The notes under the pieces were generated by a model. That model did not search any database. It worked only from the letters and a program-made list of their open reading frames with translations, and was not told the origin of the DNA. From contig CP091718.1 of assembly GCA_022009675.1 (NCBI GenBank), forward strand, positions 1,609,225-1,673,224: a stretch of 64,000 nt of DNA, given 5' to 3'. This document shows, in pieces, positions 6,574 to 31,531 of this stretch. The DNA is from Oscillospiraceae bacterium. GTDB taxonomy: Bacteria > Bacillota > Clostridia > Oscillospirales > CAG-272. The translations under genes and the position numbers were made by a program. The stretch's first letter is position 1; every line of letters begins with the position of its first letter.

Positions 6574-6588
6574 AAAAATCGCCTCTTT

Positions 6589-7053: not shown

Positions 7054-7059
7054 GATTTT
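6797..7059. repeat. 263-bp direct repeat, left copy (5' part of the PTP gene)
   Basis: It aligns base for base with 62600-62862 with about ten mismatches. The two encoded 86-aa segments are identical. Confidence 0.85.
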
Positions 7060-7130
7060 ACAGTTTTTTTGCCCACTTTCATTTCGTTATGTTGCAAATC
7101 TTCCCTAGTTCATTATTTTTGAGCAATATA

Positions 7131-7665
7131 TCACGAATGATCTTTTTGATTATCAGCAGAATAAGCATGACAATCATAAAAGATATAGATAATGTTCCAC
7201 ACCAAAAAAACTTTTTTTACCATATCGACAGAAACTACTGTAATGCAAATTGACATAATCGTAGCGATCAGAGAAAGTACCGTCGCAGATATAATAGAGA
7301 CAAAGGTTTCTTCTATGATTTTTCCTTTTCGATACGGTTTGCACTCTCACTTTTTTTCCCATCAATATTGTTGCAAATCCAAACAGAATTGTGAATATCA
7401 GAGAAAAAAACTGTTGTCAATGTTTCGGCAACTGTATCTTGCAAATTAATCCGAAGAGCAAAAAAATTAAAAATTGCTGATAAGATAATTGGAAAAAAAG
7501 TAAAAAAAAGCACAATAAGTCCCAGAAAGAAATTTTTTTGCTTTTGTCATTTGTAAAAACCTTAAATTGCTGTCGGATCAATGATCCAAGTCTTACTTTG
7601 CGATTGCAAAAAAACATTATAAATACTATAAGTGCCGATATGATAGCCCATATTAAATCGGTCAT
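7131..7665 (-). pseudogene. multi-pass membrane protein, fragmented at homopolymers
   Basis: A GGAGGTGG RBS precedes MTDLIWAIISALIVFIMFF.... Hydrophobic segments continue in all three frames across T7/A7/T8 runs (ORFs 7417-7665, 7313-7513, 7174-7365). The end coordinate is approximate. Confidence 0.35.
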
Positions 7666-7683
7666 TCAATCGCCACCTCCATC

Positions 7684-8636
7684 TCAGATTTTTATCATTC
7701 GATAATATTTATCCGATTCTTCCGATAACACTTCAACAAAAGGTCGTTTTCGATTTTCCGAAGAATTTACAGATACAGTAATATCATAGCTGCCGATCGC
7801 GCTATCAATTTCATTCCACCGTACAGTCTTCCTTCTTCCGCCAATGCGAACTTGGATCTCGGCGTCATTATATTCTTCACTTCCGTTGCTTTCTGTTTTG
7901 ATTAAAGCAAAAGCCTCATCCTTTTCAATTTTTCCAAGCTGCAAACTTCGCACAATATCTCTTATTGAGCTATTCTCGCTCGCTTCCAAATTAAGCCCCA
8001 GTTCTCTGATAACTGTTTTTCTTCTTTCTTCTTTTTAGATTATCTGCAATATCGGAAGTTTTTTTGCCCTGAACCACCTGCAGCGTGATTTTTGGATGGG
8101 CAAAAAAATTTATTTGCATTTGCTGATTTGGAACATATAAATCCATATTCATTACATACCCTTTTTGTTTTTTTAGCATGTTATTAGCCGTTTCCATAAA
8201 AACGCTTTTGCAACCAGATCCGTTTTCGCGATGAAAAATTGCAATAATAAAACTATGACAATCGTATATGTAAACATGATGATCATAAAGTGCCGCGCTG
8301 TCGGAGTTGAAATTGTATTCTTTTTGAAAGTGATGGTTTATATACAGTGAGGGGTTTCCCTTGCTTACCCGCGCGAGGAACCAAATGCCATCTTTTAACA
8401 CCTTCGGACAAGTCTATAGAATGTGCATTATCCCCGGACAATATAATTCCTCTATCCGAGTTTTCGCCAACTGCCATTTTGCTTGTGCTATCAATATAGT
8501 CGGCAATAAACTGTTGAAAGGAATATTTCGGTGTCTCTCCCGCATGTATATTATCTTTTTGTTCTTCATAGTGTGGATTATTTCGCTCCATATACCGAAA
8601 GCTCAAAACATACGCTGTAAGTGTTTCAGATCTCAT
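7684..8636 (-). pseudogene. unknown ~315-aa protein, fragmented
   Basis: An AGGAAAGGA RBS precedes MRSETLTAYVLSFRYMERNN.... ORFs 8283-8636, 7991-8401 and 7684-7989 abut or overlap in different frames and read as one product. I recognise no motif. Confidence 0.4.
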
Positions 8637-8701
8637 TTTTATTCCTTTCCTAACTGTTAATCATTAACGGTCATTTAAATTATCATTGGTGGTAAATCAT
8701 T

Positions 8702-9430
8702 TTATTCGATATTCACAAACTTTCGTCCCTGTGTTGTAAATACCACATCTCTGTGATACTCGAGGTTGTGTTTTAAATCGTCCGATACTTTCAAATCAAA
8801 TGTATCTGTGACGCAAATGTGCAATTTGCTAATCACTTCCGCCGATAGCTGTGATGAAATCAATATCTTTCCGATATTCGTGAAAGAGATTAACCCACAG
8901 TCAAACAACTTATCAAATGTCGGACTCAGTAATAATCCGTTCTCAACACTCAAGCGTTCTGCATTTGAACATACCACCCACGGCTTAATGTGACTAGCAA
9001 TAAGGAGTTTCTTTTCATTGATACCGGTAACAACACAACGTCCGTGATATTTGTCAATAAGTGATTTTCTGAATATTCCTTGTCCGATTCGGGACTTCAC
9101 CAATGCACTGCGTTCCGTCTCCTTGAGCTCTGCATAATTTTCAATGGCACCCATAACTTCGCTTTGATTGGCAACATCGAAGTTTTCGACATTTCTGAAC
9201 AACCTATACTGTTTCAGAGCATTGCTGTACATATTGTTTCCGGTTCGGTTTTTTATCGTGAAATCCGGATCATTTAAAATCAAAGGTATAAAAATGTCAA
9301 GTTGCAAAGTAGACATTACAAGAAGGTTGCTCGCAATCACTCCCTTTTCCTGCAGTTCATTTGAGATCGTATTTACAGCCCGCGTGTATTTATAGATTGA
9401 ACTGTCGGACAATTCGGTATTCTCTTTCAT
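8702..9430 (-). CDS. HNH endonuclease (probable type II restriction enzyme)
   Basis: 242 aa. RIGQGIFRKSLIDKYHGRCVVTGI...LLIASHIKPW...ENGLLLSPTFDKLFDCGLISF is the HNH_2-type pattern. It lies directly downstream of a C5 MTase. Confidence 0.7.
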   Translation of the reverse strand: MKENTELSDSSIYKYTRAVNTISNELQEKGVIASNLLVMSTLQLDIFIPLILNDPDFTIKNRTGNNMYSNALKQYRLFRNVENFDVANQSEVMGAIENYAELKETERSALVKSRIGQGIFRKSLIDKYHGRCVVTGINEKKLLIASHIKPWVVCSNAERLSVENGLLLSPTFDKLFDCGLISFTNIGKILISSQLSAEVISKLHICVTDTFDLKVSDDLKHNLEYHRDVVFTTQGRKFVNIE

Positions 9431-9480
9431 CCACTCTGAAAAAAATCACTCAATGATACCACACTATCACCTCCAAACTA

Positions 9481-10434
9481 CTATCGCATTATTTTTATAA
9501 TTCTTTCAGCTACCCTTTTGACTACGGGAACGCAAACCGTATTTCCGCATTGCTTATAAGCATCTTCAATTGTAATCGTATTGGGAAAATAAAAGTCTTT
9601 AGGGAATCCCTGAAAATCAAGGCATTCACGAAGCGTTAACTTTCGAATCCCGTAATTATCAATTACAAGTGGGACTTGATCCCTTTGCGTCCCCATTGAA
9701 GCAGTCAATGTTGGACACATGTGGTTTTGTGTAATTTTTATACTTTCATGATACACACGATATATAGATGATTGATCTGTTACAATTTCTCGCACCTTTG
9801 CGAAAAAAGGATCATTTTTCTGATAATAGTAGACCCGGTTCTTTTCCTCATGCCTATTAATTATATTGTCAATTGAAACTGTTAGTGGAATTGTATCGGG
9901 AAATTTAAATACATCACAATCAACAATATCCTTAAATGCCACAATATAAATACGGTCGCGGATCTGCGGGACATTGCCATACTCAGAAGCTCTCATAACG
10001 CGGTATCTGATATAATACCCGTTTTCAACCAACGCATTATGAATCGTGATAAATGTTCTGCCGTTGTCATGCTCTTGTAGGTTCTGAACATTTTCAAGAA
10101 AAATAACTCGTGGCTGAATAGCTTGTACAAAACGGATCACTTCATAAAACAGATTGCCGCGGTTATCACAAAAGCCACGCTGCCGACCAGCAATCGAAAA
10201 TGGCTGACAAGGAAATCCGGCGGCTATAACATCGACCGTAGAAAGAGAATGAGGATCTACATTGCGAATATCTGCCTCAAGCAGCGGGATTTCTTTATGG
10301 TTATGCCGATATGTAAGGCAACATTTGTGATCCTTTTCTATCGCCCATAGAATTTGAAATCCTGCTTGAGCGAAACCCAGTTCAATGCCGCCTATTCCCG
10401 CAAACAGGCTCGCAACCTTTAGTGCCATTTGCAC
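9481..10434 (-). CDS. DNA (cytosine-5)-methyltransferase
   Basis: FAGIGGIELGF (motif I), GFPCQPFS (motif IV), LENVQNL (motif VI), RKLTLRECLDFQGFP and GNTVCVPV (motif X). Confidence 0.9.
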   Translation of the reverse strand: MQMALKVASLFAGIGGIELGFAQAGFQILWAIEKDHKCCLTYRHNHKEIPLLEADIRNVDPHSLSTVDVIAAGFPCQPFSIAGRQRGFCDNRGNLFYEVIRFVQAIQPRVIFLENVQNLQEHDNGRTFITIHNALVENGYYIRYRVMRASEYGNVPQIRDRIYIVAFKDIVDCDVFKFPDTIPLTVSIDNIINRHEEKNRVYYYQKNDPFFAKVREIVTDQSSIYRVYHESIKITQNHMCPTLTASMGTQRDQVPLVIDNYGIRKLTLRECLDFQGFPKDFYFPNTITIEDAYKQCGNTVCVPVVKRVAERIIKIMR

Positions 10435-11388
10435 TCAATATTCATTACAGAAACTGGCGTAGAAATAAATTGGACATCGAACTTTAAACTCGGTTGGACT
10501 ACAGTGCTTGCACTATGAATTCTAAAGCTGAACGCCCAACCGTTATCCATATAAATTTCCACTGTAGTATTACTGTTTTTTTCTTAAACCTCATAGCAAT
10601 AATTTCTGTAGGAATATCTGCTGTTAAGACTTCAAAAGCAGATACTTTTTACTGCGCTTGGTTGATTCAATGTGCCGTGAAGATTAAAATGTATGTATTA
10701 GGGTCATTTTTTGCTGTCGTGACTGACAATCTTGTGGTAATCTTTCACTCCAACCAAATACTCAAACATTTTTTTACAACTATATTAGGATTCTCTCTAT
10801 ATGCCCGGGTAACCTCGTTCAAAAAAGCCTGAAGTAACGGCACATAAACGGTTTCTTCTTTTTTATCCAAATCAGCCCATGCAGTTCCTCTGTCTTTCTC
10901 GCATTTCAATAATTCAAAAACCTGATTAATATCGTTCCAATAATCATGACTACAAGGAACGCCATACCACTCCTTACCGAAGTCTAATACATGACTCAAC
11001 CGGCTGTGTTTGACTGCATCGTGATTATGCTTTATGCTCAATCCAATTTCCCAATCAATATCATCTCTGTGGATAACTATGTCTCGAACATCGCCATTCT
11101 CTCCAGCCTCATCCTTTTGAAATTCAAGAAGCAATGTGTCTACCGAATTTTCATCCATCATTGGCTCTAACTCAACAATTGTATTCGCAGCCGCATTAGC
11201 CGAAGTAGTGTACAATTTCTGCTTTTCCTGACTTATTGCATTCCAAGCCCTTTCGTTTGCCTCATAGCTCGAATTATATACTACATCTGTTTTTTTCTTA
11301 ACGGTTTAAGAAGCTCAAGCAACGCAGTCATCCAAGCATATTCGTATGCTCGTCCCTGGTTATTACTATTAACACTCATGTATCCCAT
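10419..11388 (-). pseudogene. HaeIII-family restriction endonuclease, several frameshifts
   Basis: The central ORF carries GLSIKHNHDAVKHSRLSHVLDFGKEWYGVPCS, which I recall (not checked) as HaeIII/NgoPII-like. N- and C-terminal parts sit in other frames after A7 runs. It lies directly downstream of an M.HaeIII-like gene. Confidence 0.5.
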
Positions 11389-11397
11389 TCTCCTTCT

Positions 11398-12414
11398 TTA
11401 GTGATTATCGAAAAAAATAATTGTTTCCAAAGTATTCTTAATTGCAATCGCAATTTCGTATGCCAAATTAACGGGGACTGCATTTCCAATCATTTTATAA
11501 GCATCATCGGCATCCTGATAGATAAATTGAAAATCATCAGGAAATCCCTGCACCCGGGCAACCTCACGAATTGTCATGCGCCGATATAAGGATTCCTTTC
11601 CTTCAACAAATCGACAATCGTTTTTTTCCGACCTTAATCATTTTGGGTGCTTGCGGATGAAGCTGACACTGCCGTCCGGATGCTTGAACAGTAAACGCTT
11701 GCTCATCCCATGACTTAACGCGATTTCGACTCATAAATATTGGCGAGAATGCACCTGTAAAATATTCATTATTATTGATCGCATTAGGATTGTGTTTGTT
11801 ATGTGGGGATGTCGGGACTGCCGTATCCTGCAAGTCCCATATAATATCGCGCAAGGTAAGCTTTTTTTCATTATCGACCGTCGATCCCTCTGGAAATCTG
11901 AAATCTATATGCAAGTCTTTTCTGAACCCAATATAGAAAACACGCTTTCTCTCTTGTGCCACACCGTAATTTTTCGCATTTACCAATGTCAGTGTAACAT
12001 CATAACCGCAATCTTCAAACATTGCAAGAATATTTTTTTCACGGCTTCCGAATGGCGGTTTGCAAGCATGCCGCTAACATTCTCGGCAAGGAAGAACTTC
12101 GGCTGTTTTTTTCGCAGGATTCGTATATACTCATAGAACAGCTGACCTCTCGCGTCATCTATCCCTCGAAGTGAACCAGCTTCCGACCAACTTTGGCAAG
12201 GCGGTCCGCCAATAATGCCGTCGATTTCATCCGGAAAATCATCTTCCGCAATATTGCGAATATCGCCTTCTATCAGATGAGTATTTGGGTGATTCACCTT
12301 AAATGTTTCATATATCTTTTTATCGTATTCGTTTGCGATCGGTATCTCGAATCCGGCTTTTTCAAATCCGAGATCCAACCCGCCGCATCCGCTAAATAAG
12401 CTCAGTATAGTCAT
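11398..12414 (-). pseudogene. M.HaeIII-like DNA (cytosine-5)-methyltransferase, two frameshifts
   Basis: [84 protein letters not shown] and (third frame) [17 protein letters not shown] all closely track M.HaeIII as I remember it. Confidence 0.85.
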
Positions 12415-12426
12415 TGCTGTTTTTCC

Positions 12427-12702
12427 TCAGATTCTACTACCATTTTCAGATGGAACTATCTCTACTATATCATCCATCGTGCAACCGAGTGCCGTGCAGA
12501 TTTTCACGAGCACGTCGCTTGATACGGTTGCACCGTCTTTTTTCATTTTTTTGCGAGTGTTGCCGGGCTGATTCCCGCCTTTGCGGCGAGCTCCTTGCTT
12601 TTTCATCTCGCGGTCAATCAGCAGTTTGAATAATTTTTTTATAGCTTGCAGCCATTTTTCCACCTCATATATAGATAGATTTATACTTTTTACAGTATAC
12701 AA
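12427..12702 (-). pseudogene. small XRE-type HTH protein (possible R-M controller), frameshifted
   Basis: The C-terminal part SSDVLVKICTALGCTMDDIVEIV is typical of short Cro/C1 proteins. KELAAKAGISPATLAK is visible in a neighbouring frame. It sits just upstream of the M.HaeIII-like gene on the same strand. Confidence 0.5.
12682..12699. promoter_or_regulatory. palindrome TATACT-N6-AGTATA overlapping a -10 box
   Basis: On the minus strand TTGCAA-17 nt-TATACT precedes the HTH gene, and the -10 is half of an 18-bp palindrome. It is a C-box-like candidate. Confidence 0.3.
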
Positions 12703-12956
12703 TAATTTCCGGCAAATTGCAAGGGGAAAAACAGAATAAATTCAAAGAACATCGATTTTTTTGCGTGCTGATGCTCTGTTAAAGCAATATAAAGGTCCCA
12801 AAAATTCGGGAACAGAGCGTGCCGCCGATATTTATTTGTATAAACTCATCCCTCAGGTTATCTTCTTAACCTCCCGATTATTCACATTGCCGCGCATAAG
12901 GTGTATAATCCTCAAAATAACCACTCAACAAATCCGATTCACGGAGGATATCAATC

Positions 12957-13242
12957 ATGTGCAACCACGACACTTATCAGTGCAATTCCGCAAAGCCCGA
13001 AATCATACATAACCGCGTGCCGTTGCAAACTGTGCGGAGACATCATTGAATCGACCGACCGCCACGAGTTTGTCACCTGCCGATGCGGAGCTTGCTCGGT
13101 TGACGGAGGGCATGATTATCTCAGGCGGTGTCTTGCCTCGCCGGATTACTTTGAGGAATTGTCGGTTATAAAGCCCTGCGGCGACAGTTGCGAAAAATGC
13201 TTCGGACAACAATCCGAAATCCGATCCCGACGCGGTCATTGA
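12957..13242 (+). pseudogene. zinc-ribbon protein, frameshifted near the start
   Basis: ATG at 12957 (MCNHDTYQC...), then the frame of ORF 12901-13242 reads CRCKLCGDIIESTDRHEFVTCRCGACSVDGGHDYLRRC. TTCACA-17-TATAAT lies upstream. Confidence 0.35.
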
Positions 13243-13346
13243 CGCTGCCGCAAAACGGATTCTTGAGGAATACCGCGATGCTTTTTACGGAACTTACGAA
13301 AGGATCGGACGACTAACTGTCATTCCCGAAGTCATATCTTTGCAAA

Positions 13347-13409
13347 TATCACTTTGGTGATATTTTTTTCTTGTAATCGCTTGACAAATTATCGCTTTGG
13401 TGATACAAT
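13347..13409 (+). promoter_or_regulatory. promoter with two palindromic operators
   Basis: TATCACTTTGGTGATA is at 13347-13362 and TATCGCTTTGGTGATA at 13390-13405. TTGACA (13381-13386), 17 nt, TACAAT (13404-13409). GGAGG is 8 nt before the ATG at 13440. Confidence 0.55.
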
Positions 13410-13439
13410 GTAGGCGAAGATAATCGGAGGTAGCCTGAT

Positions 13440-14132
13440 ATGAACAAAATAATCACCTTATTTCACGGCTCGGAAAAGGTCATAGAAGCACCCTCTTTCG
13501 GTGAGGGCAAAAGAAATAATGATTTCGGGCTCGGATTTTACTGCACCGAAACCGAAAAGCTTGCGAAAGAGTGGGCGGTTTCTTCTTTAAGAGACGGCTT
13601 CTGCAATCGTTATACATTGGATACCGAATATATGAAGATCCTGAATCTGAACAGCCCCGATTACACCATTCTCAACTGGATTGCCGTTCTTGTCGAGCAT
13701 CGCCTGTTCTCCATCAGGACGCCTATTGCAAGAAGAGCGAAAAAATATCTGATTGACAATTTCGGCATAAATGTAAATGCTTTCGATATCGTTACCGGCT
13801 ACCGTGCGGATGACTCATATTTCGATTATGCGGAATCTTTTCTGAACAATGCAATCTCCGTTGAACAGCTTGCGGCTGCAATGAAGCTCGGAAAGCTTGG
13901 CGAACAGATTGTTCTCAAATCGCAATTCGCTTTTTCCCGCATTCGATTTGAGGGGTTCGACGTTGCCGAAAAAGAAGAGTTTTATGTTCTCCGCAAAGCA
14001 AGAGATGATGAGGCGAACCGACTGTATCTTGAGCTGCTTGAAGAAGAAAGCGACGGCTTGTATATACAGGATATTATAAGAGGAGGGATTACAAACGATG
14101 ACTCGCGCATACCAAGAAATATATCTGAATAA
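13440..14132 (+). CDS. DUF3990-like protein
   Basis: 230 aa. LFHGSEKVIEAPSFGEGKRNNDFGLGFYCTETEKLAKEWA matches my memory of DUF3990. Confidence 0.65.
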   Translation: MNKIITLFHGSEKVIEAPSFGEGKRNNDFGLGFYCTETEKLAKEWAVSSLRDGFCNRYTLDTEYMKILNLNSPDYTILNWIAVLVEHRLFSIRTPIARRAKKYLIDNFGINVNAFDIVTGYRADDSYFDYAESFLNNAISVEQLAAAMKLGKLGEQIVLKSQFAFSRIRFEGFDVAEKEEFYVLRKARDDEANRLYLELLEEESDGLYIQDIIRGGITNDDSRIPRNISE

Positions 14133-19538: not shown

Positions 19539-19832
19539 AATTCAAAAAGAGTAGTGAATGCTAGGGATTCCGACCACAGCTAAAGCTTGGAATCAAACAT
19601 ATGACATAGAAAGCGGAGTCTCTTTGAGGAAAAAAATTAATTTGCGAAGAAAAATCCAACCAGAAAGAGACTGCCCGCTATCTACAGACAAGAAATCACT
19701 CAGGTCGTCACATTGTTCACATCCCAAAGAGCAGCAACCTTATAGTGCCGAAGAAAAAGTACATCATTGATATAATCGCCAACTTCTTTAGTATGTTTGA
19801 ATTTCTCATACGCCTTTAAGTAATCTGTCATT

Positions 19833-20392
19833 CTATCGCCTCCAGCACCCGATCCACCGTCTTGCCGTCCCAGCCGGTGCCGAGCATTTGTTTGGTGATG
19901 ATGGTTTATAGAGCGGGTTTTGCTCGATGATGCTCCAGAGATGGCGGAGGATGCGGATATAGTCGTCAAAGTTTTCCTGCACTTTGGAAGCCACGGTTTT
20001 TGCGCCATTCCTCGGCGGGTTCTTTGCCGGCGTAAATGTCGTTGAGCTGCTTGCAGATATAGTTGATAGCAGCGCCAATACCGGGAAGTTCGTTTTCATT
20101 GGCGTCCTGGTTTCTCGGCTCTTCCGAAATCTTTACATGGAGTATCAGATGTTCGAACGGATTGCAATAGACAAGCCGATTCTTTTTCTAATACTCAAAC
20201 GGATTCCGCGCGGCATACTCATCATTACTGAGCATGATTGCCTTATCTTCATCGATATGATGACAGAAGAGACCTTCGGCAGTACGGGAAACCAACTTGT
20301 TCTTGATGGTACATTCTCTGTCGGTGAAATAATCGTGCTTTGCGGCACCGTATTTTTTTCAGGAGCGCTTTTACCAAATCATCATATTTCAT
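19833..20392 (-). pseudogene. HNH-like nuclease, frameshift plus in-frame TAG
   Basis: After the A7 shift the reading is YGAAKHDYFTDRECTIKNKLVSRTAEGLFCHHIDEDKAIMLSNDEYAARNPFEY-TAG(20188-20190)-KKNRLVYCNPFEHLILHVKI. Confidence 0.45.
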
Positions 20393-21457
20393 CAAAAGAT
20401 CGGCTTCATACTCTGTTTTAACTGCCGGATCCATGGATTTTACATTTAACTCAATAAACTCAATTTCATCAGCAGAAAGGTGATATTTTTTATAAAGTTG
20501 GCGGTCAATCTCGGAGATGGATTTTGTCCAATCAATATCGGAATTAGGCTTAAAGTTTTTGTACTGGGATGGTTTCCCATACAATAGGCGGACAATGATG
20601 GGGGGTCTTTTTTATCCCTAACAAAGCTCTAAAGAACTTTGTTTTGAAATACTTTGCAAAATTCTCTGGCTCAATTCTCAAATCAAACATTCCGCCACAA
20701 AGAAATGTGTCGGCAGAACATTCATTTGGCTCACCAACAATCGGTTCCGTTAATGTTTCACCAAACATACCACTATTGTTAGCCTCCGGAATAAATAGTT
20801 TGAAATAATCGAGTTGATCAACACGCAATAAATAATCTTTTGATATATATCGCACGGATCGTTTATTGTTAATCCTTCCCAAAATCTTAACATAATCGCC
20901 CATATCAGGTGCTGTTTCAAGAAAAAAACATCGGGCATTTTTCTCAACTACATTAGAAACAATTTTTATTTCCTGTACCTTCTCCAATTATCCCCTTAGC
21001 TTCGGGGTGATCACAAAAAAAGTTTTCGGAAAAACGAAAAAGTCCTTGTGATGCAATAATTGTATTTAACCCCGGGGCACCGGATGCTTTAACCTTTTCC
21101 AAAATAGAGTTAAGTTCCGGATATTGTACAAATGTATTTATCGGTCCAAAGTCAATACGCGCATCTCGGTATGCAATCACAACCCCACCTTTTATTTCGA
21201 CGCTTGGGAAAAACTTCTTTTGAATCCTCAAAATACTTAATTACCTTAAAAGTGTGTGTCTGAAAGCATTTTTGTCATTCCAAACTTTCGGGGTTTGACC
21301 AGCATTGAACAAAAAAAGCGTGCCGGAGTAATTAATGTAACTATATTTGCAAGGGAAAATGAAACATCATAAAAAAATAGTTATAAACCGGAGGTTTTCT
21401 AGTGTTTCCGCTTTCCTCCTGATACGGCGGATTCCCGACGATTGCATCGAACTTCAT
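20393..21457 (-). pseudogene. N6-adenine DNA methyltransferase (Eco57I-like, NPPY), several frameshifts
   Basis: It starts MKFDAIVGNPPYQ. Later pieces are SVEIKGGVVIAYRD..., IPEANNSGMFGETL... and YHLSADEIEFIELNVKSMD, spread over three frames. Confidence 0.7.
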
Positions 21458-21462
21458 TTCTT

Positions 21463-24400
21463 TCACCTCTTTTTCCCCAATAGCTGCCTTTGAGGATCTT
21501 CTTTTTGAACTGCTCCGGCTTGCTTTTTCAGCATATTGACAAGGTCATCAAAATAGTGGGCATTGACGACATTATCGTGATAACCGGTCAGCGTGCGTTT
21601 TGTGATATACTTTGCCATCGGGGTTTTGCAGATGACATAAATATTGTCGCGGAGAACTTCTTCCCACATGGCTTGCAGCTCGGCGGGCTCCCAGTCGTCA
21701 TCGGTGGTGTCCTCCAGCTTCTGACGGTAAACGCTGTAAGCGACATAGAGCGGATACAATCCGGTCTTGGAATTGATCTCCAGAATATGTGTGTCCTCGC
21801 GGAACACTTCTTTTGTCACCTCTCCCTGATCCACAAAGCGCGGCTCGTCCAGGCGGTGCTTTTCCTCCTGCGTGTCGTCCTCAAACTGTTCATTGAAGAA
21901 GCACCAACCGCCCAGCGTATCGCTCATATGCATATTGACAACACGCCACGGTGTCAGGACAGTTTCCTTGTCAGGATTTTTGAAATGGCGGAAGATCTCG
22001 GCAATCAGTTTTACGCGTCTTGTGGGCGTTTCTTTGTCCGCCGCTGCCGCCAGTTTACGAATGCGTTTGCCTGCCGCGATGAACACATCTCGGTCGTAAT
22101 ATTTTGTGAAATCCGCAAACAGCGGCTTGGTCACGCCTTTGGGCATAAATTCCGCCCATGAGGTATCGTCCACAAGTTCCACAAAGCGGTCAATGTCGAT
22201 GTCCTCGTCAATCGGCACATTGGCGCCGTAAATCATCAGCGGCATACGGATAGAAATACCGCGGAGAATATCAATGGCTTTTTTGCGGGCTTCCTTTGCC
22301 TGTTTCTTTTTCAGGCGATCCGCGATTTCTTCCGGTGTTGGCGGTGTGGGAGGTGTGACGGGCTCATCATCACCGTCGTCGATATGGGCGATCTGTTCAT
22401 CGGTCAGTCCCTGACCGTTGACAACGACGCTGTCTTTTTTCTTCTGCGCTTGGGAGGCGCCGATAATGTCCTTCAACGCATTGAATTTGGAAGCATCGAT
22501 ATCGTCAAGCTTCAGAAGCTCATCGTTATAGATGGATTCGTCTTCAAATCCGCTGTTGACGGCTCTCTCGGCGTAAATCTGCTTGACCTGCTCCATCATG
22601 GAGCTGACGCTGTATTTGGTCATTCTCGATCCGGCAATCGCAATGACGGGGCAATAGTTCAGAAATTCTGTCATTACCTCGCGGCGCTTTTTCTGATTTT
22701 TGCCGGGTTTACGGGAAAGATGTACGGTTTCGGTCAGCACTTTCAGGGTTCTGTCAGGTGCAAAGTCAAAAACATAGCAATCGGTTTTCTGCTTGCCGTC
22801 AATACATCCGGCAGACTGCACACGGAAAATGGTCTGCATATACTGAGAAGCAGCTGTGGAATAGGAGCCGGAAAGCATCAGCACCGCCGTCCACTCCGGA
22901 ACGGTCACGCCAGTGGTCAGTTTTTTCCGCAGGAAAGTGTGATGGAATACTTATTTTCGCGGATGGTTTTGCGAACAAGCTCCAGCGCGTCCTTTGCGTG
23001 GTCTTCCTCGTAAGTATCACCCTCTCCGGCAACATTGGCAATGCCGAAATGCATAAACACCGGGTGATGGCGGAGCATTTCGCTGAGCGCCTTTGCCTCT
23101 TTTGACGCCGGGCACCATCCACAGCGTATGGCGGAACATATTACGGTAGGCATCGGTAGAGAAGGGATAGATGCTGTCCTTGTCCTCTTTTGCCATCAGA
23201 TCCAGGAAAGAACGGACGTCCGCTTCGTGTACGAAGTTGCCCTCAACGGCACCTTGTGGGATCTCACGCCTGCCATGCGGGCCTCTTGACCATACACGGA
23301 AGAATTCGCGGAAGTTGAATGCCTTGGTATCGTATTCGTCCGAGACATATTTTTTTCAGTTTTTCGCCGAGATCGTAGGTATAGATATGCATCTGCGGCA
23401 GATCGGCATAGGGGTTGTGGTCACCATAATGCTCCGCGTCCCACTCTGCCTTTTTCTTCTGCTCCATGACATAGTCCCAGGTATAGACATTGTCTTCGCC
23501 GAACTTATCAAGCAGATTGAACGGCGTGCCGGACAAAGCCAGCACTTTGGTGCTCGCTTTGCGCAGTTGTTTTATGACATGATCGCCCAGTTCGGTCTGT
23601 GTGCCTTCGTGGGCTTCGTCAACGATGATAAGATCCCCAATCCAGGTCAAATACCGCGTTGTTTTTATTGAATTTTCCGCCGACACGTTTGGAGCCGCGC
23701 AGATCCTGAATCGACGCAAAAATAGAGGAAATAGGCGCCGTCTTTATCAAGCCGTTTGATTTTCAGATCGTTTTCAAGGTCAATCTTCTCATCGTAGGTA
23801 TAGGCGGAGTCGTTGGTTTTCAGTTCAAAAGAATAGTCATGCTCGGATGAACCCGGATAAAAGATTTTTGCAAAATCCGTGCTCCATCCGTCGCTGACGA
23901 CCGGACGATGCGTGACAATGATCACGCGGCGATACTGCGAACGGCGCACGACTTCAAGGGCTGTCAGTGTTTTGCCAAAACGCATTTTGGCATACCACAG
24001 CATTTCGTTCTCTTTTTTTGAACGCTTTGATGGTCTGTTCGATCGCTGCCTTCTGCTCATCACGGAAATCTATTTTTGCAACCGTCTGCCCGTCAGAGGT
24101 TTTCTCGGTCGAGGAAAGCGCGGACTTGCCTTGTTTTACGGCAAGGATCGCGCGAATTGCCACATCTACCGTCGTGGCAAACCATTCCTCGCCCGTTGCA
24201 CCGTTTGGCTGAACCTTATGAATGCCGGAATTCATCAGAACCTTGTGGACATCTTTGTCCTTAAAGGTGAATGAATATCCGTCATTTTGCAGGACAGCCA
24301 GCTCGGTATATTCCAACTTAAAGTTCACGCTTGCGGTTGCTGTGTAGCCTTTGATACGGGCAATAGCCGCCTGATTCAGTTCGCGGCAATTCGGTGTCAG

Positions 24401-24526
24401 GTATTCGGGTTTCGTATCCGTGGTCAATGTCGCCTCACCGATTTTCAGAAGCCCCTTATGGGTATCGTAGGGCATGCTGAAAACATATATGAGTTTGTAT
24501 TTATAGGTGCAATCAAACCTTTCCAT
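21463..24526 (-). pseudogene. GIY-YIG (T5orf172-like) + SF2 DEAD/DEAH helicase restriction-type enzyme, several frameshifts
   Basis: N-terminus KYKLIYVFSMPYDTHKGLLKIGEAT, helicase motif I AKMRFGKT, motif II IIVDEAHEG, and a long intact C-terminal ORF 21463-22908. Confidence 0.75.
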
Positions 24527-25505
24527 GTTTTTCGCTCCTCTCAAACAAGTCAATAAATCTTACGGAATGTTCGCGGCTCCAATCCATGATTCGGCAGTAG
24601 GTGCCGGTATGGAGAGCGTTATCGTTTTTCAAGCAGCCGGGGCACGGCTCGTTTTTTGTCCTATCATCGAACAAGGACAACTGAAAATTTTCAATCGGTT
24701 TGCAGGAATTCGGAATCACATATTTTAACCCGTCCATCTGCCAAAGATTCCATGAAAGGATTTTTGCGATTTTTACCAGGTATTCCTTAATCGGCGGTAC
24801 GGTGAACCGATCCGTATAGTAGTCGATGAAGGAAAACAACAGATTCTCGCGGGCAATAAGCAGGCTGTCGCCTTGCCATTCAAAGCCATACACCGATTGA
24901 AAGGCTTTGGTTACCCACTTCATCCAATCCTGTTCGGTCTCTGTGTTTTCGTTGACAATGCGTATTTTGCGATCCAGGATGCCGATCCTGTCGCGCACTT
25001 CAATCCATTTTCCGGTCACGGTGTCATAACGGCTCGCAAGGTATGGTGCTTCGCCGCAGGAAATCTCCATGCGATTGGCTTTTACATAGTCCTGCCATGT
25101 CCTGCCTTCGGGAAAAGTAATTTTTTCTACCGATGTGATCCATGTCTGACTGTTCTCGGTGTTAAACACATTTTTCTCTGCCGAACCATGCGTTGTCCAC
25201 AAGGTTATTTTGGTTGTTACATACCCACGACGGAGTGAAAACCTCCGCCTTGTCACGAACGCGAATTGCCTGTTCCTTTTTTGATTTTGTCGTTCGTGGT
25301 TTGATAACGCTTCCGTTACGGTGCGTAATGCTATCTACCATGATCTGATCGCTGCTTTGATATCCAAACCCGCGCTCGGCATAGTTATCGGTCGCCCAAA
25401 TAATATTTTTTTGCCGGAGCTCTTATCGAGAAGCAAAATTGCAAGCAGATTCGCATCCAGCTGATAGATATAATTTTTCTTTTTATATCAATATTTTTGT
25501 TCCAT
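24513..25505 (-). pseudogene. R-M-associated conserved protein of uncertain function, frameshifted at its 5' end
   Basis: NIIWATDNYAERGFGYQ...KAEVFTPSWVCNNQNN...EISCGEAPYLASRYD...RIGILDRKIRIV. I have seen this pattern annotated next to Eco57I-type methylases but cannot name the family. Confidence 0.4.
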
Positions 25506-25608
25506 TTTCATCTCACGATAAAAATCATTTTATACGACCTCGGACAATTTCAAATTGTCAATTTTTTATGAGGGAGCTGTTGAATTTTTATCACAATACA
25601 AAGCATTT

Positions 25609-25811
25609 TTAATTATCGTAGTATATTTTGTGTTTTAAGGGCATACATGCGTTCGTATGCGCGGTACACAGGGATCTATCATTAGCACGCTCAAATGCTG
25701 TCCGCACCAATGATTCAATCGCTTGATCCATCTCGCTCCAATATGCCCACACCACATAGTTTTTGTTATCCCATAGCTTGGGCGAAATAGTGCTCAATTC
25801 CAATTGACTTA
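25609..25811 (-). pseudogene. ThsB-like TIR gene, 3' fragment (left of the IS)
   Basis: SQLELSTISPKLWDNKNYVVWAYWSEMDQAIESL... joins in frame to 26629-26938 once the IS and one TA are removed. Confidence 0.65.
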
Positions 25812-26626
25812 GAGCCTGTTGACACTATTTTAGCCACATGAAGACGCACGCGATTTGAACGAACGACAGGAAGATAACATCGAGTTTATCATATCTTGTA
25901 CACACTCTGCGAAACGCTTTTAGCCATCGAAACAGTCTTTCGATAATATTCCTTCGCTTATATAGTTCATGGTCATATTCCCACGGATTTATGCGATTTT
26001 TCTTTGGTGGGACAACCGGTTTGTGTCCGAAAGACTGGCAGAGTTCTCTTGTTTTATCACCCTCATAGGCTCTATCCATTAAGTACGGAATTCCCGAATA
26101 GCTATCTCCTATGTTTTCAATTGAGATTCTTCCTTGTGGGGCGTCGTGACAGTTTCCACCGGATAAGTGCATTCCGACAATGACCTTGTCATTTGCGGAT
26201 ACCACGTGAAGCTTGGTATTCCATCCGCCCTTTGATTTCCCGATACATTGTTGTCCGTGTTTTTTAAAGCGCCATGTGCGTCAGGGTGCAATTTACAAGA
26301 GGTACTGTCCAAAGCCAGCACTTGTACTTTGATCGCGATAATTTTTTCCTGCTGCAGTGCATTAAAAATACGCTGTATTACGCCATTTTCACACCATCTT
26401 TTTAAATCTTTGGTAAATGCTATTCCATTTGCCGTATTTCTCTGGAAGTGCCCTCCACTTGCACCCATTTTTCGGTAATATACAAGATAGCGTTGATAAA
26501 TGTGTAATTGTCGATTTTTACATTCCCACGCTGAACCGGAAAATACTTTTCGATTCTTGCGTACTGCGCTTTTGTGATATTCATGTATTTATTATATCAT
26601 ATTTTGACCTTAGTGTCAACATGCTC
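25812..26626 (-). mobile_element. IS5-family insertion sequence (IS427/IS1031-like size), 815 bp
   Basis: The terminal inverted repeats are GAGCCTGTTGACACTA and GAGCATGTTGACACTA (15/16). TA is present on both flanks (25810-25811, 26627-26628). The transposase stop lies inside the left IR. Confidence 0.85.
25825..26584 (-). pseudogene. IS5-family DDE transposase, frame changes at A-runs
   Basis: MNITKAQYARIEKYFPVQRGN...GCKWRALPEKYGKWNSIYQRF...LDSTSCKLHPDAHGALK then ...LSGGNCHDAPQGR...YLMDRAYEGDKTR...RNIIERLFRWLKAFRRVCTRYDK. One shift, at an A6 run, could be programmed. Confidence 0.8.
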
Positions 26627-26628
26627 TA

Positions 26629-26938
26629 GTGAATCGCTTCTGGAAGGTAAATGAACAGCTATAATCCCAAGTCGTTGACCCACTATGCCACGAAGCGCTG
26701 TGTGTATTTCTCTATCAACATGAGGTCTACTGTATGTTTCTTTACCAATCAAACATAGCAACACTTGGCATTTCTTAACATGTCTACATGTAAAATCTCG
26801 AATCGTTTCATTGCTTTTTCCATTAAAATCTGCATTTTCCGGAACCGCGTAATATTCGATTTGATGTGCTTTTAAAATAGTCTCAAGCTTTTTTCGATAT
26901 TTAGCATCGGCTCGGTGATAACTGATAAACACTTTCAT
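26629..26938 (-). pseudogene. ThsB-like (DUF1863-type) TIR gene, 5' fragment
   Basis: MKVFISYHRADAKYRKKLETIL...CQVLLCLIGKETYSRPHVDREIHTAL.... The ATG overlaps the stop of the upstream gene (ATGA). The reading runs into the IS right end after ...SRSDSL. Confidence 0.7.
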
Positions 26939-27360
26939 CTTGCTATCCCCCAAACAGTCAATCCAATAATCAAAGCTCCGTATAAAGGAACTGTTGATGC
27001 CGATCCTATAAAAGCTCTCCAAAAAGAATAGTGCCATCCCGTAAATTTGTTCAAAGGCATTTCGTACTCACGAATTACAATATGGTTTTCAAGTCCGGCG
27101 ACATTATTATAAATACCAATAAATTTGTATTCTTTTGATAGATAGAAAGCGTCCAAAAACCCAAAAATTAAAACCACAGGTGCAAGCGCTATCCAAAGGT
27201 ACATCTTATTTCCCGTATTTGTTTCTGATATTGTTGAAACATACACAGCAATCAACGCTGAAACGGCGGCAATTGCCCATCCTTTCATTTGAAAAGAACA
27301 TTGATTCATGCGTGAAATACTATTTTGGATGAATTCCAAATGCTGCTCGTTCGGTTTCAT
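26935..27360 (-). CDS. small 3-TM membrane protein (SLATT/DUF4231-like topology)
   Basis: 141 aa. An N-terminal helix LEFIQNSISRMNQCSFQMKGW is followed by hydrophobic helices at about 28-45, 56-75 and 120-140. It sits between and is coupled to its neighbours. Confidence 0.6.
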   Translation of the reverse strand: MKPNEQHLEFIQNSISRMNQCSFQMKGWAIAAVSALIAVYVSTISETNTGNKMYLWIALAPVVLIFGFLDAFYLSKEYKFIGIYNNVAGLENHIVIREYEMPLNKFTGWHYSFWRAFIGSASTVPLYGALIIGLTVWGIAR

Positions 27361-27371
27361 AATGCTACTCC

Positions 27372-28709
27372 TTATTTTACTGAATCATCAGAAATTGAAA
27401 GACTATACGAAACATTCTTTCTCGTCCCGCTCGCCGTAATCTTTCCGTCCTCCATCATTTTTTGCAGAATTCTGCGTGTGGTGGAGGTGGAAACGCCGAG
27501 TGCTTTCTCGATTTCCGTGCGGGGATGTGGCGCATGATCGGAGAGAACAGTGAGGACGATCTGTTCCCGTTCGGTGAAAACAGGCGGCTCTTTGACTATA
27601 TTTGTAGTCGTTTTCAAAGATATGCTCTGATTCGGCAAGACAAATTTGAATGCCCCGGAAGTTACAGTCACCTCCGGTTTTCTCGGAGAATTCTGATAGG
27701 AGGACATGATCTTGTTCATGCCGGTTCCGTATGCCTCGATGAGTCCCATGCGATAGAAAATGTCGGCAAGTTTTTTGTTACGGCAATAGGAAATACCAAG
27801 CATCATATCGTCATAGGAAATGCCCCCGGCAAGACCGCCGATGGAAATCAGCTCAATACGGTCCGAATACACGCTGAGAAGCGTACTTGCCGAAACGGCA
27901 TAGTCCCGGTGAACAATGGCGTTGAGGAGCGCCTCGCGAATGGCGGTATCGGGATAATCTCTGTGGTCAATGCGCTGTAACCCCTCAAAGGTCGCCGCAT
28001 TCCGGTTGCGCATATCAAGGTAAGCATACGCATCCTCCAACTGCTTTAAGAGCGAACCGGTGAACTCCCGACGGTCCTGGAAGTTGTCCTGATTGACGCC
28101 GGCAAAGGTAGCGGCTTTGATGATATGCGGGCACTGATCTGAAAGGAGCAAGGCAAGGTTGGAATACAACCCGTCGCGGTCGATAAGTCCGAGCGTTTTC
28201 ATCTGCGTTTCGCCGAGGGAGAGATTCCGCTTGGCAAACTCCGCCGTCACCTTTTCAAAAGTCAATTCCTGTTCCAGCGAACGCATATCCTCGTAATTAT
28301 CGCCATCGGTTTCCTTGATCATTTGGCGGATAGCGGTATCGGATGCAGGGACAGAGGATGTGCCCTGACGGACAAATACACCTTCCGGACGGAGTCCTTT
28401 GGCGGCAAGGTAATACGGACGATGTGCCCCGCATTGTACCTGCACGGCAACAATGCTTTTTCCCTCATCCGCAGGTAATGCCTCGATGTGCATAAACAGC
28501 GTAACATCGGGCTTTATAGCGTCTCTTGCCGCATTCATTACCTGCTGCATCACGGCATCGGCATTTCCCACGCCGCAAACACTTCCGTTATCTTCTACGC
28601 CAATATAAATCGTGCCTCCGCGCGTATTGGCAAAGGCGATGATCTCTTTCTTGATGTCCTCTACATAGACGGACTTCAATTCCACCGTTTCACTTTCGGC
28701 AAACAGCAT
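27372..28709 (-). CDS. AlbA_2/Schlafen-like + HATPase_c_4-like + wHTH protein (COG2865 type)
   Basis: 445 aa. ESETVELK..IAFANTRGGTIYIGVEDNGSVCGV, AIREALLNAIVHRDY, and a C-terminal TSTTRRILQKMMEDGKI. Confidence 0.75.
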   Translation of the reverse strand: MLFAESETVELKSVYVEDIKKEIIAFANTRGGTIYIGVEDNGSVCGVGNADAVMQQVMNAARDAIKPDVTLFMHIEALPADEGKSIVAVQVQCGAHRPYYLAAKGLRPEGVFVRQGTSSVPASDTAIRQMIKETDGDNYEDMRSLEQELTFEKVTAEFAKRNLSLGETQMKTLGLIDRDGLYSNLALLLSDQCPHIIKAATFAGVNQDNFQDRREFTGSLLKQLEDAYAYLDMRNRNAATFEGLQRIDHRDYPDTAIREALLNAIVHRDYAVSASTLLSVYSDRIELISIGGLAGGISYDDMMLGISYCRNKKLADIFYRMGLIEAYGTGMNKIMSSYQNSPRKPEVTVTSGAFKFVLPNQSISLKTTTNIVKEPPVFTEREQIVLTVLSDHAPHPRTEIEKALGVSTSTTRRILQKMMEDGKITASGTRKNVSYSLSISDDSVK

Positions 28710-28746
28710 AGCAACCTCCGAGCAAAAAGTCTTTCTTTCAATGTAT

Positions 28747-28792
28747 AGTATACCACAATTTGTTCATCGCGTCAAGTCATATGAACAAATTG
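28747..28792 (-). promoter_or_regulatory. promoter with 12-bp inverted-repeat operator
   Basis: On the minus strand: TTGACG (28775-28770), 17 nt, TATACT (28752-28747). CAATTTGTTCAT (28756-28767) and ATGAACAAATTG (28781-28792) flank the -35. Confidence 0.5.
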
Positions 28793-28991: not shown

Positions 28992-29020
28992 TTGACAAAT
29001 CCCTGAGATCATGGTATTAT
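28992..29020 (+). promoter_or_regulatory. sigma-70-like promoter
   Basis: TTGACA (28992-28997), 17 nt, TATTAT (29015-29020), just upstream of the LexA-like gene. Confidence 0.5.
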
Positions 29021-29034
29021 ATTAGTGAGCCAAT

Positions 29035-29682
29035 ATGGGCAATTATATTTTCGGAGGCATTATGCGCAAACGAAACGAAGGCAATTTTGCCGTGATTCGA
29101 GAGTTTGTCGACCGATATTTTTTAGAGAATCAACGCTCTCCAAGCACACGGGAGATTGAAGCCGGGACGGGTATACCCCGCGCAACGGCGCAACGATGTC
29201 TGCGTCTGATGAGTGAAAGCGGAGAGATTTCATACGGTAAACGGCGTGGAATTGAAACTGATTTGTCCCGCAAAATCGGCGACTCCGTATCGGTTACGCT
29301 CTATGAAAGCACCGTTTCCTGTGGTACGCCGAACGAGCCGTATGCAGATATCTGCGAGGTGATTTCGCTCCCGCGTTCATGGGTTGGTGAAGGTGAATTC
29401 TTCGGAGTTTACGCCAAAGGAAACTCTATGGTGGACATCGGCGTTGAAGAAGGCGATCTTCTGATCGCAAGAAAACAGAATACTTTCGATGACGGAGATC
29501 TTGTAATTGCCCTTGTCAACGGAACGGAAACCGCTTTCAAACGGTTGTACCGGGGCAAGGAAAACGGCGGCTTTATTCTTCACGCAGAGAATAAAACCTA
29601 CCGAGGAGAAGAACTTGATCGGCATGTAAAAAATGTTTCGGTGCAAGGAATCGTCCTTCGCGTTCTCAAAGAATTGAAGTGA
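29035..29682 (+). CDS. LexA-like / phage-repressor-type S24 peptidase
   Basis: 215 aa. N-terminal wHTH (STREIEAGTGIPRATAQRCLRLM) and an S24 domain with GNSM and FKRL. Confidence 0.8.
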   Translation: MGNYIFGGIMRKRNEGNFAVIREFVDRYFLENQRSPSTREIEAGTGIPRATAQRCLRLMSESGEISYGKRRGIETDLSRKIGDSVSVTLYESTVSCGTPNEPYADICEVISLPRSWVGEGEFFGVYAKGNSMVDIGVEEGDLLIARKQNTFDDGDLVIALVNGTETAFKRLYRGKENGGFILHAENKTYRGEELDRHVKNVSVQGIVLRVLKELK

Positions 29683-29777: not shown

Positions 29778-30086
29778 AGGAAAGGAAGAATGCTATGGCA
29801 AAATCGGAATGGTTGGAAAAAAATAAAACGACTTCTATGTAGCAAGCAATCCGGTTTGATTCTCGATCTGAGCGATGCCAATGCCGTACTGGCACGCATC
29901 GTTGAAATTCTCAAAGAGAATCGCGGGGAGATCAATCTGCCCGACATCGAGTTGGAAGCACTCGCACGAGCCTTTCTCCCCGATATTCTCGCATTCTTTT
30001 CCTCACCGGAAGGGAAAGCGGAATACGAAGCGTGGCAGAAAGAAGTGTCATTGAAAACAGAGAGCGATAGAAAGGAGACGGCATGA
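29727..30086 (+). pseudogene. small recombinase-associated protein, frameshifted near the start
   Basis: MAKSEWLEKNK (ATG about 29794) shifts at an A7 run into ...GLILDLSDANAVLARIVEILKENRGEINLPDIE.... Its stop overlaps the recombinase start. Confidence 0.3.
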
Positions 30087-31531
30087 AAGGGGTCATTTAT
30101 GCCCGCTATTCCTGTGACAATCAACGGGAAGAATCGATTGAAGGTCAATTACGGGACTGCAAGGAATATGCCAAGCGGCATGATATTTTGGTCGTTGACA
30201 CCTACATTGACCGCGCCTTTTCGGCAAAGACCGATCGGCGCCCTGCCTTTCAACAAATGATCAAAGACAGTACCAAGCGCGGGTTTGAAGCTATCATTGT
30301 TTGGAAACTCGACCGCTTTGCCCGTAATCGCTACGACAGCGCAACCTACAAGGCAAAACTTCGTAAAAACGGTGTTCGTGTCATCTCCGCCAACGAAAAC
30401 ATCTCCGAAGGATCCGAGGGCATTCTGCTGGAATCAGTACTGGAGGGCATGGCGGAATACTGCTCCGCCGACCTCTCGGAAAAAGGTACTTCGGGGACAC
30501 ATGGAGAACGCCCTCAAATGCAAGAGCAACGGCGGCGGGATACCCATCGGTTTCTATGTGGATGAAGAAAAGCATTATCAGATTGATCCTTTGACCGCAC
30601 CCCTTGTGCGGGAGGCGTTTGAAAGTTGTGCTGATGGCAAGAAAGTCATCGACATTGCCGAAGACCTCAACCGTCACGGCGCAATTCCCCATCGAGGAAA
30701 GAAATGCACCATCAGCACTGTCATTCTGATGCTGAAAAATCGCAAATACCTCGGAGAGTATAAGTACAGAGATATGGTCGTGCCGGGCGGAATTCCGAGG
30801 ATTGTCTCCGATGAACTGTTTGAACGGGTACAGAAGCAGCTTGTAAAGAACAAAAAAGCCCCGGCAAGACACAAAGCCGAGGACGATTACCTCCTGACAA
30901 CCAAACTGTTTTGCGGTGACTGCGGTTCAATGATGTTTGGGGAAAGCGGAACCAGTAGTTCGGGGACCGTATACCACTACTACAAATGCTCCAATGCCAA
31001 ACGGCATGGCGGATGCCGGAAGAAATCTGTGAGAAAGACATGGATTGAAGATATTGTGGTGGGAAGTGTTCACGAGCTTCTTTGCGATAAAGAACTGATT
31101 CGTGATTGGAGTAACAAAATCCTCGCGATTTTGAGCAAGGAAAAACACCACGCTGCCTCTGTTGAAGCGGGATCTCGCGGAGGTCAAACATAGAATCGAT
31201 AACCTGTTAAATGCCTTGCAGGCGGGCATCATCACCGACTCCACCAAGGAGCGTCTGAATGAACTGGAAGAACGCCGAAAAATGCTGGAAGAACAAATCG
31301 AAGAGGAAAAACTTCAAATGTCCGCAACTGACAAGAGAGCAATTGACCTTTTGGTTTGAAAGAATGGCAAAGTACGACATCACGAAAAAGGAACATCGCC
31401 AGCGGCTCATTGATACTTTCATCAACACTGTGTTTCTCTATGATGACCGTATCCTCATTACCTTCAATCATAAGAACGGACAAAAAGACCATTTCTATGG
31501 AAGAAGCGAACGGTTCGGATTTCAAAAATAG
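30083..31531 (+). pseudogene. large serine recombinase, several frameshifts
   Basis: VIYARYSCDNQREESIEGQ (catalytic Ser), the recombinase domain (ORF 30285-31193), the zinc ribbon CGDCGSMM...YYKCSNAKRHGGC, a coiled coil and a C-terminal tail in further frames (31162-31359, 31259-31531). Confidence 0.8.

Follow-up and report, generated by a model that had tools for sequence, protein, structure and literature searches.

A probable type V Thoeris cassette with an IS-split thsB, nested between Schlafen and restriction-modification genes in an Oscillospiraceae bacterium

In a 64,000-nt stretch of the genome of an Oscillospiraceae bacterium (contig CP091718.1, positions 1,609,225 to 1,673,224 of the forward strand; hereafter the window), we analysed three adjacent minus-strand genes, the second and third of which very probably constitute a thsF-thsB pair of the type V Thoeris system whose thsB has probably been inactivated by an insertion sequence (IS). 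As judged from sequence comparison, the pair forms a lower-GC cassette between gene 1, which encodes a prokaryotic Schlafen (pSlfn) protein, and the restriction-modification genes of a mobile element. A first-pass annotation made from the nucleotide letters alone had read the three genes as one uncharacterised abortive-infection module. Their open reading frames (ORFs) lie exactly where it had placed them, all on the minus strand (Table 1), but neither the unity of the module nor its novelty held up: gene 2 is homologous to a validated Thoeris protein and matches an existing candidate-system model, and gene 1 has the architecture of a described pSlfn class (PMC13056530). Homology, synteny, cassette boundaries and the anatomy of the IS were computed here, and signalling and membrane killing are carried over from a homologous, validated system.

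Gene 2 is a homologue of the Thoeris effector ThsF

Type V Thoeris combines a ThsB protein carrying a TIR domain with ThsF, a protein with three membrane-spanning helices, for which a model shows a heptameric channel whose pockets between protomers are positively charged (Yirmiya et al., bioRxiv 10.64898/2025.12.03.692087). The type V system of Bacillus thuringiensis DAR 81934 protects Bacillus subtilis, and 3' cyclic ADP-ribose (3'cADPR) is made on infection; added 3'cADPR renders the system toxic, with the effector alone being responsive, and Tad1, a 3'cADPR sponge protein, blocks defence (10.64898/2025.12.03.692087). The DAR 81934 ThsB listed in Table S1 of that study proved 100% identical to the protein P0390. 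On the contig of P0390, the next gene starts 14 bp downstream and codes for a protein of 141 aa with three hydrophobic segments placed as in gene 2, and the upstream neighbour (271 aa) is devoid of hydrophobic segments.

A profile built from the gene 2 family (A1) aligned with this validated ThsF from end to end (hhalign probability 99.0%, E 2.2e-18, 31% identity, 126 columns). In addition, gene 2 matched the PADLOC candidate-system model PDC-M50A (1.3e-27), as did the validated ThsF itself (1.8e-48). Given the end-to-end alignment and the shared model, we consider gene 2 to be a ThsF homologue and PDC-M50 to correspond to type V Thoeris. The two proteins have the motifs LEFIQ..I.RM...SF..KGW and FW.LD..YL..E..F in common, and the hydrophobic segments of gene 2 (residues 27-45, 51-75 and 116-134) occupy the same positions as those of ThsF. 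An AlphaFold2 model of gene 2 (mean predicted local distance difference test score, pLDDT, 90.1) displays long helices at residues 3-42, 53-87 and 123-140. R17, K26, D70, Y73, E77, Y84 and N85 are conserved polar residues of ThsF. Gene 2 thereby belongs with the small three-helix membrane effectors homologous to ThsF, a family of at least 4089 proteins at E<=0.001 in a library of representatives at 50% identity.

The three hydrophobic helices had already been recognised in the first-pass annotation, which likened them to pore-type effectors of the SLATT/DUF4231 kind. This likeness found no support: Pfam SLATT_1-6 and DUF4231 gave no significant match to gene 2 or to 35 members of its family (SLATT_1 was seen in one of the 35, at E 0.19; DUF4231 in none). 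No Pfam family was assigned to gene 2. The family profile retrieved chance matches only from PDB sequences (E>=0.5), and a Foldseek search of the pLDDT-90 model against the PDB returned nothing at E<=0.001. As a separate observation, the validated ThsF (L024 4773-5195) and four relatives showed weak, nearly full-length matches to PF24838 (8xMP; E ~0.01), so that ThsF may be remotely related to this ring-forming octameric membrane family; a literature search on 8xMP turned up only unrelated uses of the string. As for the candidate-system model, we presume that the PDC models of PADLOC stem from the work of Payne et al. Searching the literature for "PDC-M50" brought up no publication, and the name is absent from the main text of that work (10.1101/2024.01.29.577857).

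Gene 3 encodes a ThsB-type TIR protein and is split by an IS5-family element

In the window, gene 3 runs into an 815-bp element whose ends, GAGCATGTTGACACTA and GAGCCTGTTGACACTA, form terminal inverted repeats agreeing at 15 of 16 positions, with TA on either flank. The ORFs of the element match DDE_Tnp_1 (1.5e-15) and DUF4096 (2.5e-4), which places it in the IS5 family; the N-terminal position of DUF4096 relative to DDE_Tnp_1, the short inverted repeats and the short target duplication are those of this family. The element thus has the extent, repeats and flanks attributed to it in the first-pass annotation. When the IS and one TA (817 bp in total) are removed in silico, a 170-aa ORF reappears that reads SRSDSL/SQLELST across the junction. 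Indeed, the metagenome contig L026 carries an uninterrupted gene 3 whose product is 100% identical to the restored protein over all 170 residues, and the same uninterrupted junction is found in L027 (98.8% identity) and L001 (97.6%). In all, intact thsB alleles are present in four other assemblies. The IS occurs once in the window and in none of 105 related loci. Its insertion into thsB is strain-specific and, given the proper target duplication, represents a true structural difference; for the same reason we regard it as genuine, unlike the frameshifts nearby (see below).

The restored protein matches the Pfam families ThsB_TIR (2.4e-12, residues 4-101) and TIR_2 (1.3e-9), bearing out the TIR-like nature first ascribed to gene 3, and gives weak matches to the ThsB and PDC-M50B models of PADLOC. 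Its Glu77, within the sequence HVDREI, occupies the alignment position of the catalytic glutamate that is invariant in validated ThsB proteins. Gene 2 is accompanied, then, by an adjacent and co-oriented ThsB-type TIR gene that has the catalytic glutamate and is here split by the IS. The C-terminal region of 66 residues that the IS removes is conserved among orthologues. At the left end of the IS, within and beside the terminal inverted repeat, the minus strand bears a perfect TTGACA-17-TATAAT with TG extension (26591-26619), presumably the transposase promoter.

The ThsF-TIR pair is conserved across lineages

A metagenome scan with the family alignment yielded 80 ThsF-family loci (a single-protein scan of genome contigs gave five). 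In 69 of the 80 loci, the ThsF homologue has a TIR gene as its co-oriented neighbour, and three of the other 11 are without flanking sequence. TIR genes stand on both sides or in tandem in six loci, two TIR genes per locus being typical of Thoeris. The ThsB subtype of the window is found in 16 of the 80. The pair is conserved across lineages and independently of other genes: it stands alone in a Bacteroidetes metagenome-assembled genome (MAG; L002), recurs in Christensenellales and Bacillota MAGs, lies beside AbiE, ToxN, Shedu and type III restriction genes in Ruminococcaceae/gut contigs, and is found on plasmids of Klebsiella, Priestia and Rhodococcus. The pairing of a TIR protein with a membrane effector, as perceived in the first-pass annotation, is therefore real and constitutes a conserved anti-phage module.

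With type V Thoeris, the pair in the window shares the two-gene operon of a ThsB-type TIR gene and a gene for a ~140-aa three-helix membrane protein, as well as a defence-island context. It differs from the B. thuringiensis system in gene order (thsB-thsF there, thsF-thsB here, both orders occurring in the family) and in its ThsB, which has 250 aa in B. thuringiensis and is of a short, 170-aa subtype here, split by the IS. In type II (Macro-TM) and type VII (SLATT effector) Thoeris, too, a TIR-made signal activates a membrane-disrupting effector; gene 2, however, has no Macro domain and no significant SLATT match.

The roles of the two proteins might also be reversed, with the TIR protein depleting NAD+ as the effector, no signal being generated, and the membrane protein serving as sensor or anchor. 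Some bacterial TIR proteins are indeed NADase effectors (10.64898/2025.12.03.692087), and single-chain TIR-ThsF fusions would fit a membrane-anchored NADase as well. Yet in the validated system the effector alone responds to external 3'cADPR and a 3'cADPR sponge blocks defence, and the ThsB partners of ThsF homologues belong to many unrelated subtypes, with two of them at some loci, which argues for a common effector with interchangeable sensors. This reversal of roles is accordingly very unlikely, and we retain ThsB as the candidate signal generator and ThsF as the candidate effector.

Several loci recovered along the way extend the range of these arrangements. [quoted passage not shown] In two proteins, P0305 (490 aa) and P0309 (375 aa), one or two TIR_2 domains are fused in a single chain to a C-terminal ThsF-type membrane domain. 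On the Rhodococcus ruber plasmid NZ_CP129903.1 (L022 2051-3423), a 296-aa "HIT family protein" adjoins a ThsB gene and the DISARM gene drmD; a HIT domain occupies its N-terminal part, and tblastn matches its C-terminal region to the ThsF-type membrane module. The ThsF membrane domain may thus be shared by Thoeris effectors of the HIT type (type XI-like).

Several points weigh against our interpretation. In a comparison of 13 sequences, the validated ThsB closest to that of the window was a type VI one (34% identity, E 1e-12), type VI Thoeris being linked to 2'cADPR (10.64898/2025.12.03.692087), and the ThsB of the window is barely alignable with the type V ThsB of B. thuringiensis. The part of Table S1 of that study that was searched holds no sequence-motif match to this ThsB subtype. 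Moreover, the effector of one type V system gave no response to 3'cADPR (10.64898/2025.12.03.692087). The same study labels ThsF as DUF2270 (PF10028), its TIR clusters having been annotated by hhsearch with an older Pfam; in our hmmscan searches, PF10028 matched neither gene 2 nor 35 members of its family (E<=10). Since the validated ThsF is likewise without a match (E<=1), this lack says nothing against membership, and PF10028 was dropped as a criterion in favour of the profile comparison with the validated protein. As to inactivation, the truncated ThsB retains the full Pfam TIR core and may have residual activity. Finally, the short distance from gene 1 to thsF would agree with some functional coupling of the two in this element.

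The pair lies in a cassette inserted at the 3' end of gene 1

Four loci (L014-L017) carry the same element without the cassette. In these, gene 1 is 98% identical to that of the window and runs directly into the genes for a methyltransferase and a type IIG enzyme, on an element backbone that includes a LexA-like repressor, two large serine recombinases, ParB and a NikA-like protein; in L014, the pSlfn, type II methyltransferase and type IIG restriction-methyltransferase genes form an operon at 6491-13474. By blastn, positions 31540->27400 of the window correspond to L014 3666-7800 and positions 25517->24443 to L014 7837-8905. Between the break points at 27400 and 25517, 1883 bp (1066 bp once the IS and one TA are discounted) stand where the cassette-free allele has 36 bp, and the insertion swaps the last ~9 codons of gene 1. 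GC content amounts to 37% in thsF and the cassette vs 50% in gene 1. A gene 1 homologue adjoins three of the 80 ThsF-family loci, and each of these three is a copy of this very element, at 97-98% identity. On the grounds of the cassette-free copies and of this low count, gene 1 is separable from the Thoeris pair and belongs to the backbone of the element. The arrangement is akin to the embedded defence genes of Payne et al. (10.1101/2024.01.29.577857), in that a Thoeris cassette is nested within a pre-existing operon and both cassette-free and cassette-bearing alleles exist.

The first-pass annotation had instead proposed that the three genes make up one new abortive-infection module. The Schlafen-ATPase-HTH protein (HTH, helix-turn-helix) would then be an obligate member of it, as sensor, regulator or second effector. 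The junctions it had pointed to are present: the stop codon of gene 1 lies within TAAGGAG, putting a ribosome-binding site (RBS) over the stop with the ATG of gene 2 only 11 nt downstream, and the stop of gene 2 and the start of gene 3 overlap by 4 nt as ATGA. Moreover, no terminator-like site separates the genes, the one good promoter lies upstream of them, and the arrangement is retained in L001, L026, L027 and L028. These four, however, are 96-98% identical copies of one element and amount to one observation, whereas L014-L017 lack the cassette altogether, the 77 other ThsF-family loci are all without a neighbouring gene 1 homologue, and close homologues of gene 1 adjoin restriction-modification or housekeeping genes. 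As the homologous two-gene system also defends alone (10.64898/2025.12.03.692087), an obligate three-gene module appears highly improbable, and the embedded two-gene Thoeris cassette is the interpretation we follow below.

Table 1 Features of the locus (window coordinates)
Feature	Position	Strand	Remarks
Gene 1	28709-27372	minus	445-aa ORF
Gene 2 (thsF)	27360-26935	minus	141-aa ORF here; 140 aa in four other assemblies
Gene 3 (thsB)	start 26938	minus	split by IS; 170 aa once repaired
thsB 5' part	26627..26938	minus	codons 1-104, TIR core and catalytic Glu77; last two bases are one TA copy
IS5-family insertion sequence, 815 bp	25812..26626	minus	inverted repeats, TA duplication, transposase domains
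Second TA copy of target duplication	25810-25811	minus	directly before thsB 3' part
thsB 3' part	25809-25609	minus	codons 105-170 and stop
Inserted segment	25518..27399	minus	new gene 1 end, RBS, thsF, thsB with IS, 3' flank
Type II methyltransferase	24513..25511	minus	frameshifted in window at A run; L014 orthologue 334 aa, PADLOC MTase_II 4.8e-126
Type IIG restriction-methyltransferase	~19825..24526	minus	several ORFs in window; placed by blastn mapping
Promoter TTGACG-17-TATACT, TG extension	28775-28747	minus	upstream of gene 1
Perfect 12-bp inverted repeat	arms 28756-28767, 28781-28792		around -35 box
LexA/CI-like repressor, HTH and Peptidase_S24	29035..29682	plus, divergent	Peptidase_S24 1.6e-21

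Gene 1 has the architecture of a prokaryotic Schlafen class

In Pfam, gene 1 matches SLFN_AlbA_2 (7.7e-20) and HATPase_c_4 (1.3e-13), the two domains named in the first-pass annotation. The winged HTH (wHTH) that the annotation had added to them is represented by matches of residues 380-427 to HTH_24, MarR and IclR (1.7e-4 to 1e-3), all of which fall under the Pfam gathering scores; several close homologues of gene 1 carry precomputed MarR or HTH annotations. The sequence ESETVELK at residues 5-12 constitutes an Ex4ExK motif that is kept in 119 of 120 homologues, and the family is extensive, as all except one of 8000 candidates scored were significant. Gene 1 hence shares with the HisKinase-HTH class of pSlfns an N-terminal Schlafen/AlbA_2 nuclease domain with the Ex4(E/D)xK motif, a histidine-kinase-like (GHKL) ATPase fused to a C-terminal HTH (here sub-threshold) and a location in a defence island; 19.2% of the pSlfns catalogued so far have this architecture (Nat Microbiol 2026, PMC13056530). 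It differs from the two confirmed pSlfn defenders, which have DUF262 or Ig-like fusions, and those HisKinase fusions that were tested were not confirmed (PMC13056530). From its domains and setting, we infer a putative pSlfn defence function for gene 1.

Other close homologues of gene 1 precede restriction-modification genes or sit among housekeeping genes. In L018, a pSlfn of 79% identity is followed by genes for an MmeI-like methyltransferase and a specificity subunit and by a HEPN gene, which suggests a recurrent association of pSlfns with restriction-modification. We take the class of gene 1 to correspond to COG2865, which is said to be listed in the defence-island literature (by Makarova et al. 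in 2011). As for the type IIG enzyme, its L014 orthologue (1550 aa) matches ResIII, Eco57I and the PADLOC model REase_MTase_IIG (3.5e-58).

An inverted repeat overlaps the -35 box of the gene 1 promoter

The promoter upstream of gene 1 and the perfect 12-bp inverted repeat that brackets its -35 box are both present as first annotated. The arms of the repeat are the sole exact copies in the window; no further copy of a 12-bp arm that would hint at a regulon was found there, and with two mismatches allowed the count is that expected by chance. The divergent LexA-like repressor gene has a promoter of its own, TTGACA-17-TATTAT (28992-29020). Transcription of the inserted cassette probably proceeds from the gene 1 promoter. 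In the 3' flank of the cassette, just upstream of the methyltransferase start (minus strand, ~25524-25570), TTGACA overlaps the palindrome ACAATTTGAAATTGT and is followed by TATAAA at non-canonical spacing; this flank may be a cassette-borne promoter/operator through which the displaced genes downstream would be expressed again.

Gene 1 could be a transcriptional regulator of the genes downstream of it (restriction-modification and, in this element, also Thoeris), its wHTH acting on the inverted repeat. Such a role would agree with the C-terminal wHTH, though this is below Pfam thresholds, with the overlap between a unique perfect inverted repeat and the -35 box of the gene's own promoter, and with its place as first operon gene in cassette-free and cassette-bearing variants alike. 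On the other hand, the Ex4ExK nuclease motif, kept by 119 of 120 homologues, speaks for an enzymatic effector rather than a pure regulator, and the divergent LexA-like repressor gene shares the intergenic region, rendering its product an equally plausible, putative binder of the repeat. On balance, a regulatory gene 1 is a tentative option that we hold to be unlikely. It is improbable, furthermore, that the pSlfn has become wired to the inserted Thoeris cassette, be it as autoregulator of thsF-thsB or as a second effector responding to the TIR-made nucleotide; if true, this would be a hybrid pSlfn-Thoeris system born of cassette insertion into the 3' end of a pSlfn gene.

Frameshifts around the cassette follow homopolymer runs

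Relative to four independent assemblies, +1 insertions recur systematically in A/T homopolymer runs of the window. Alignment of the window with L001 revealed 19 gap openings in 5.9 kb, and all but two of them are extra window bases in A/T (rarely G) runs. In thsF, three extra bases at 27159-27168 turn the LFWVLD conserved in L001, L026, L027 and L028 into LIFGFLD; L026, L027 and L028 also have shorter runs at this site. With 17 of 19 indels relative to L001 being insertions in homopolymer runs, the frameshifts in the methyltransferase and type IIG genes (19825-25511), in a serine recombinase gene (30083-31193) and in the IS transposase, whose reading frame has several breaks in the window, are most likely sequencing errors. 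This indel pattern led us to reject the idea that the frameshifted neighbours are real pseudogenes.

Discussion

By analogy with the validated system, an intact version of the pair would work as follows. ThsB would sense phage infection and its TIR domain would convert NAD+ to a cyclic ADP-ribose isomer; this signal would bind the small ThsF, a predicted ring-shaped membrane oligomer, and binding would lead to membrane disruption, such that the cell is killed or arrested and phage replication stopped. In the window, the IS cuts thsB after codon 104. With the 66 conserved residues at the C-terminus gone, the system should be off: a cell devoid of functional ThsB would make no signal, and thsF would remain as an intact gene. 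Gene 1 would act as an independent gene of the defence island. The locus, in short, is a defence island with a probably inactivated Thoeris sensor gene.

What looked like a new three-gene abortive-infection system resolves into three known things, namely a pSlfn gene, a type V Thoeris cassette that is embedded, and a set of restriction-modification genes. The cassette-free and cassette-bearing alleles offer a natural example of a nested defence cassette with its junctions at base-pair resolution. The IS provides a presumed natural knock-out of the sensor gene thsB that spares the gene of the toxic effector, which fits the cost or autoimmunity risk of abortive infection but may simply be neutral. 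At the level of the family, the three-helix ThsF module pairs with many ThsB subtypes and also occurs fused to TIR or HIT domains, which supports the view of the ThsF-type module as a modular, signal-gated membrane effector.

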